A stretch of DNA of 64,000 nt from Shigella phage sb1: the sequence record PQ666539; one strand, given 5' to 3'. The translations under genes and the position numbers were made by a program. Below the pieces are notes generated by a model. It had not been told where the DNA came from and ran no database searches. It saw only the letters and a program-made list of their open reading frames with translations. This document shows positions 32,575 through 35,712 of the stretch, one piece after another. The first letter of the stretch is position 1, and each line of letters opens with the position of its first letter.

Positions 32575-35712
<3,138 letters not shown>

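Follow-up and report, generated by a model that had tools for sequence, protein, structure and literature searches.

The window analysed here, 64,000 nucleotides of Shigella phage sb1 (sequence record PQ666539), covers the structural-gene region of a T4-like phage (Tequatrovirus), with gene 53, genes 5 to 15 and genes 16 to 24 onward arranged in T4 order. Its best matches in the phage collection are ~96.5–96.9% identical. The listing of open reading frames (ORFs) shows several essential genes near gene 15 to be broken up. The gene for the terminase large subunit is split into three, and interruptions are also seen in genes 5 and 6 and in the genes for the tail sheath and the major capsid protein. 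Gene 15 itself occupies a single frame, at the first codon of which ATT is found where ATG would be expected. The start site comprises the following features.

32565–32570, plus strand: AGGAGA, the Shine–Dalgarno sequence of gene 15, the same in T4 and relatives
32575–32577, plus strand: ATT in place of the gene 15 ATG, the T at 32577 being a G>T change private to the window
32575–33393, plus strand: gene 15 coding sequence, 272 codons, tail sheath stabiliser or tail terminator gp15
32623–32625, plus strand: Met17 of gp15, the nearest in-frame ATG, an internal methionine without a ribosome-binding site

The initial annotation had described a gene 15 start reading ATT rather than ATG, in a frame open from 32551, with AGGAGA 4 nt ahead of it and the next in-frame ATG 16 codons on and lacking a ribosome-binding site, and each of these statements is borne out. 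Direct reading confirms both the frame, which is open from 32551 after an in-frame TAA at 32548–32550, and the translation given for it; downstream of the ATT the rest of the frame is open in the ORF listing. Separating the ATT from AGGAGA, which is the native ribosome-binding site, is a spacer of 4 nt (AATC). The ATG at 32623–32625 is codon 17; the sequence preceding it ends ...GATATGCTACCTTG, and no Shine–Dalgarno-like purine run was found there. According to the ORF listing of the window, the earliest canonical start in the gene 15 frame is the TTG at 32620. A promoter and terminator scan near the gene 15 start gave no signal beyond shuffled expectation.

T4 gene 15 (NC_000866.4, 95367–96185) aligns base for base with the window gene and has its ATG at exactly the ATT codon, confirming that the locus is the orthologous gene 15 start. 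Alignment places ATG at this codon in six other relatives as well (sb2, pSs-1, Ec_YwIITB1 and three IMG/VR contigs), and over 106 nt around the start the sole difference between the window and sb2 is the G>T at 32577. Residues 1–272 of the window gp15 match residues 1–272 of the T4 gp15 chains in PDB entries 3j2m and 4hud (E = 7.7e-182), which begin MFGYFYN. The protein matches Pfam family PF16724 with 322.5 bits against a cut-off of 25, residues 4–257 corresponding to profile positions 1–243 of 245. Of 50,697 phage records searched by tblastn with the first 60 residues of gp15, 1,503 gave a match; 40 rows were sampled down the ranking, and 38 of these show an alignment that starts at gp15 residue 1, including alignments with phages of Klebsiella, Acinetobacter, Proteus and Aeromonas at 46–60% identity.

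The gene order 13–14–15–16–17–18 is kept between the window ORFs and the annotations of relatives and T4, and the gene 15 coding sequence of the relatives is annotated at coordinates equivalent to 32575–33393. Among the annotated relatives and T4, no orthologue annotated from the downstream ATG was found. On the strength of the alignments from residue 1, the ATG of T4 and relatives, and the PF16724 match from residue 4, orthologues start at the position of the ATT codon and not at the downstream ATG; the earlier judgement that this ATG is not a credible start is thus upheld, with distant orthologues aligning from the first residue. Judged from its sequence, gene 15 of the window is an ordinary member of the T4 gp15 family, showing every feature of membership that was tested.

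To place the G>T at 32577 among the other changes in the window, private substitutions were defined as positions at which all relatives agree and the window differs, with window positions 10011–57996 compared with three close relatives. Over these 48 kb there are 603 private substitutions, 173 of which are G>T or C>A (95 and 78, respectively; referred to here as G:C>T:A), and the remaining transversions together number 91. Compared with five relatives, 155 of 464 private substitutions (33%) are G:C>T:A; the corresponding fraction in intact records is 5% for pSs-1, 4% for Ec_YwIITB1 and 7% for sb3. The excess of private substitution is confined to this class. At the two window ends, the private changes number 160 and 56, and 44 and 19 of them, respectively, are G:C>T:A. 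The window as a whole has ~200 random-looking G-to-T or C-to-A changes. Their density is even along the window and their spacing is near Poisson. No significant context bias was found in the trinucleotide or in the 6 nt on each side, and CGG, the G-strand form of CCG>CAG, has an observed/expected ratio of 1.13. The natural background is expected to supply ~16 of the 155 private G:C>T:A changes, which leaves an excess of about 139, and from the spectrum alone a private change of this kind is ~90% likely to belong to the error class.

The coding effects of the private changes were obtained by placing them on the 48 annotated genes that carry them, and the random expectation by enumerating every possible G>T or C>A change in the same genes.

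G:C>T:A observed in coding sequence: 134 missense, 18 nonsense, 16 synonymous and 1 start loss; codon positions 71/60/38
G:C>T:A expected if random: 133 missense, 20.8 nonsense, 14.7 synonymous and 0.5 start loss
Private transitions observed: 70 missense, 0 nonsense, 261 synonymous and 0 start loss; codon positions 57/30/245

The observed effects of the G:C>T:A changes almost exactly equal the random expectation, so that selection has never acted as a filter on this class, which reaches 1.06% of the G/C sites in coding sequence. The private transitions, 245 of 332 of which lie at codon position 3, are ordinary natural divergence.

Private G:C>T:A changes create 24 nonsense codons (TAA, TAG or TGA) in genes, 18 in the central 48 kb and 6 in the window ends. 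The bases concerned are 3072, 6041, 6355, 7753, 12249, 13505, 17212, 18418, 25107, 26190, 29329, 33858, 34975, 35461, 42043, 42312, 51075, 52143, 53609, 54634, 55075, 55897, 59587 and 61451. Most of the genes hit are essential for virion structure or assembly, namely 3, 5, 6, 9, 10, 12, 16, 17 (twice), 22 (twice), 27 (twice), 29 and 51; further private stops lie in other genes, among them uvsY, uvsW.1 and an alt-like gene. The following stops include a 25th, in the tail sheath gene, which the window has in common with sb2.

17212–17214, plus strand: GAA>TAA by G>T, gene 5 (baseplate hub and tail lysozyme)
33858–33860, plus strand: GAA>TAA by G>T, gene 16 (terminase small subunit)
34975–34977, plus strand: GGA>TGA by G>T, gene 17 (terminase large subunit)
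35461–35463, plus strand: GAA>TAA by G>T, gene 17 (terminase large subunit)
36125–36127, plus strand: GAA>TAA by G>T, gene 18 (tail sheath), common to the window and sb2

With stops in so many essential genes, the genome as written is non-viable and could form no plaque.

The private G>T changes mapped onto genes include the T at 32577, which is a member of this unselected error class. Gene 15 carries further window-private changes of the same class.

33004, plus strand: C>A, His144Asn
33021, plus strand: G>T, Met149Ile, also an ATG>ATT change
33243, plus strand: G>T, Leu223Phe

The loss of one start codon is in line with chance: the 49 start-codon G/C sites of the 48 genes, at a rate of 1.06%, lead to an expectation of 0.52 losses, with one seen, and the probability of at least one by chance is 0.41. 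An exact 30-mer carrying the ATT allele has no match in IMG/VR, GTDB genomes or metagenome contigs, and in a BLAST search of GenBank phages with a 57-mer centred on the T at 32577 none of 810 records was identical, the best having one mismatch. A real, functional ATT has a likelihood of a few per cent at most, given that the change is ~90% likely to be noise, that loss of the start of an essential gene is improbable and that the allele is found nowhere else. The initial annotation is therefore sound as to the locus, the ribosome-binding site and the dismissal of the downstream ATG. The significance that it implied, an ATT initiator or a meaningful mutation of gene 15, is not supported: the G>T sits in an unselected class together with 24 private stops, and the allele is absent from all collections searched.

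Very probably, then, the ATT is a sequence error or unselected damage rather than an unusual start codon. The gene 15 ATG would be normal in the phage, its G having been misrecorded or damaged as T, and gp15 synthesis would start in the ordinary way, at ATG from the AGGAGA ribosome-binding site. On this reading, the window as a whole is a T4-like sequence overlaid with stochastic, context-free G:C>T:A changes at ~1% of G/C sites that were never exposed to selection. Physically, we infer, they most likely stem from an error of the oxidised-guanine type made in sequencing, in the library or in the consensus; another possible source is damage to the few DNA templates that were sequenced. Low coverage, amplification from few damaged molecules and a faulty consensus step would each fit. 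G>T and C>A changes are the signature of 8-oxoguanine:adenine mispairing and a known artefact of library preparation (Costello et al. 2013, PMC3616734). As an exact diagnosis, the classic 8-oxoguanine shearing artefact was rejected: the base change fits, but the CCG preference is missing. A systematic, context-dependent basecalling error, such as might arise on glucosyl-hydroxymethylcytosine DNA, was likewise set aside, the lack of bias within 6 nt on either side and the near-Poisson spacing arguing against it.

Some of the changes recur in two other Shigella phage records, sb4 (PQ666542.1) and sb2 (PQ666540.1), both of which come from Kolkata lake water and have ~96% identity to the window. 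Their private G:C>T:A fractions are raised, at 22% and 12%, respectively, and sb4 also has many other transversions. There are 33 G:C>T:A sites common only to the window and sb2 and/or sb4, among them 36125 (the gene 18 stop) and 32686 (C>A, gene 15), a hint that the records may share a laboratory, run or template as their source. As purely independent random errors would not coincide, these sites count against such errors, and they keep some common-source explanation alive.

Gene fragmentation is also seen in these public records. The 'complete genome' of sb4 has genes 6, 7 (four pieces), 10, 12, 13, 14, 15, 16, 24, 27, 28, rnlB and uvsW in fragments, gene 15 being annotated as two coding sequences; in sb2, gene 18 is in pieces, with the annotated split at the same place as the window stop. 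Escherichia phage Ec_YwIITB1 (PQ356294.1) has split or shortened coding sequences for gene 23, hoc and wac and is otherwise clean; its sequence, too, has some local faults, but not the G:C>T:A signature. Single-base oddities in the window, such as lost starts, premature stops and odd residues, should be judged against G:C>T:A noise of ~1%, and equal caution is due with the public sb4 and sb2 records, in which essential genes are annotated in fragments.

Other small changes lie outside the G:C>T:A class. Gene 12 (short tail fibre), which also has the TAC>TAA stop at 29329, contains a private one-base deletion at 28275 (CCC>CC in a C run) that shifts the frame and is the sole clear private frameshift in the central 48 kb; a further private one-base difference is located near 24414, in an intergenic T run. 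Two nonsense changes of other types are a T>A in gene 23 (43618) and an A>C at 9066. A gap of 18 bases at 40801 falls in the small prohead gene that follows gene 20, in an acidic stretch rich in GAT and GAA whose length differs among all relatives, and a gap of 12 bases at 12860 (gene 1) is common to the window, sb2 and sb4; these in-frame length polymorphisms look like natural indels, not errors. At 54053, a private T>C turns the gene 51 stop TAA into CAA, and the frame then ends at 54058 after a short extension; being a transition, this change is more likely to be natural than to belong to the error class.

A less favoured explanation for the G:C>T:A changes, and on balance an unlikely one, is that they are physically real in the sequenced DNA, having arisen in oxidised or amplified single molecules or in a mutator host of the mutM/mutY type. 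The ATT would then be present in some molecules, and the genome would be non-viable or non-clonal. Mutators in mutM and mutY are specific for G:C>T:A. The Poisson spacing and absence of context bias fit stochastic damage to individual molecules, the sites partly common to sb2 and sb4 hint at a joint template or laboratory source, and a pure G:C>T:A spectrum is the product of unrepaired 8-oxoguanine (PMC3616734). Against this, a consensus of many virions should not hold 24 lethal private stops. Whether the source is sequencing error or real DNA damage, the ATT is not a functional, selected feature.

That the ATT is real in a viable phage and is read by non-canonical AUU initiation, with gp15 synthesis reduced and sensitive to IF3, is highly improbable. 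The native ribosome-binding site and its spacing are intact and the remaining gene 15 frame is open. A low level of gp15 would be tolerable in that one gp15 hexamer suffices per virion (T4 neck). Formyl-methionine is inserted at AUU too, so that the N-terminal residue would be alike with either start codon. AUU initiation is possible in Escherichia coli, where infC and pcnB use it, and in cell extracts AUU mRNAs give ~28–74% of the AUG output (PMC5499595). However, the G>T belongs to an unselected class that also wrecks many essential genes, the ATT is unique against 810 or more relatives and three large collections, and it has neither conservation nor a regulatory rationale. The specific proposition that a wild Tequatrovirus truly starts its essential gene 15 at AUU from AGGAGA, with the T at 32577 a natural G>T, is extremely doubtful; if true, it would be a case of rare natural AUU initiation in a phage structural gene. 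A real ATT would have been a modest curiosity bearing on non-AUG initiation in T4-like phages.

Almost certainly wrong is the remaining proposal, a true loss of the start codon with synthesis of gp15 from TTG 32620 or ATG 32623, without its first 15–16 residues. These are the earliest canonical in-frame starts, but both are without an upstream Shine–Dalgarno sequence. Distant Straboviridae show conservation of residues 1–16 from codon 1 onward, and this segment overlaps the PF16724 profile, which begins at residue 4; the conserved N terminus and the Pfam profile contradict a start at either codon. The solved T4 gp15 chains start with the full N terminus, and among the annotated relatives and T4 no orthologue starts at the downstream ATG.

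Compared with known systems, gene 15 of the window is like that of T4 in its place between genes 14 and 16, its AGGAGA, the spacing and the match over 272 residues; it differs in its first codon, ATT where T4 and every relative examined have ATG, and in the several private missense changes of its product. The sb2 and sb4 records resemble the window in their raised G:C>T:A fraction and fragmented essential genes, but most affected positions differ; the gene 15 start is ATG in sb2 by alignment, and the sb4 coding sequence is annotated from the same position.

With infC and pcnB of E. coli the window shares an AUU after a Shine–Dalgarno sequence that could in principle be read by the initiator tRNA (PMC5499595). 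Across bacteria, infC keeps its AUU or AUC, and IF3 autoregulation acts on this codon, whereas the window ATT occurs in a single sequence, as part of an unselected class. Of the features that mark an infC-type initiator, conservation of the non-AUG codon among orthologues is lacking here, T4 and six relatives having ATG, as is purifying selection on the sequence that carries it, the G:C>T:A effects equalling random expectation.

The 8-oxoguanine artefact introduced by acoustic shearing favours CCG>CAG and appears at low allele fraction (PMC3616734), whereas the window changes have no context preference and are fixed in the consensus. In the class of base change and in its non-biological behaviour, the window is like this artefact (PMC3616734), and, as in the artefact, the changes are approximately symmetric between the strands, with 91 G>T and 73 C>A.
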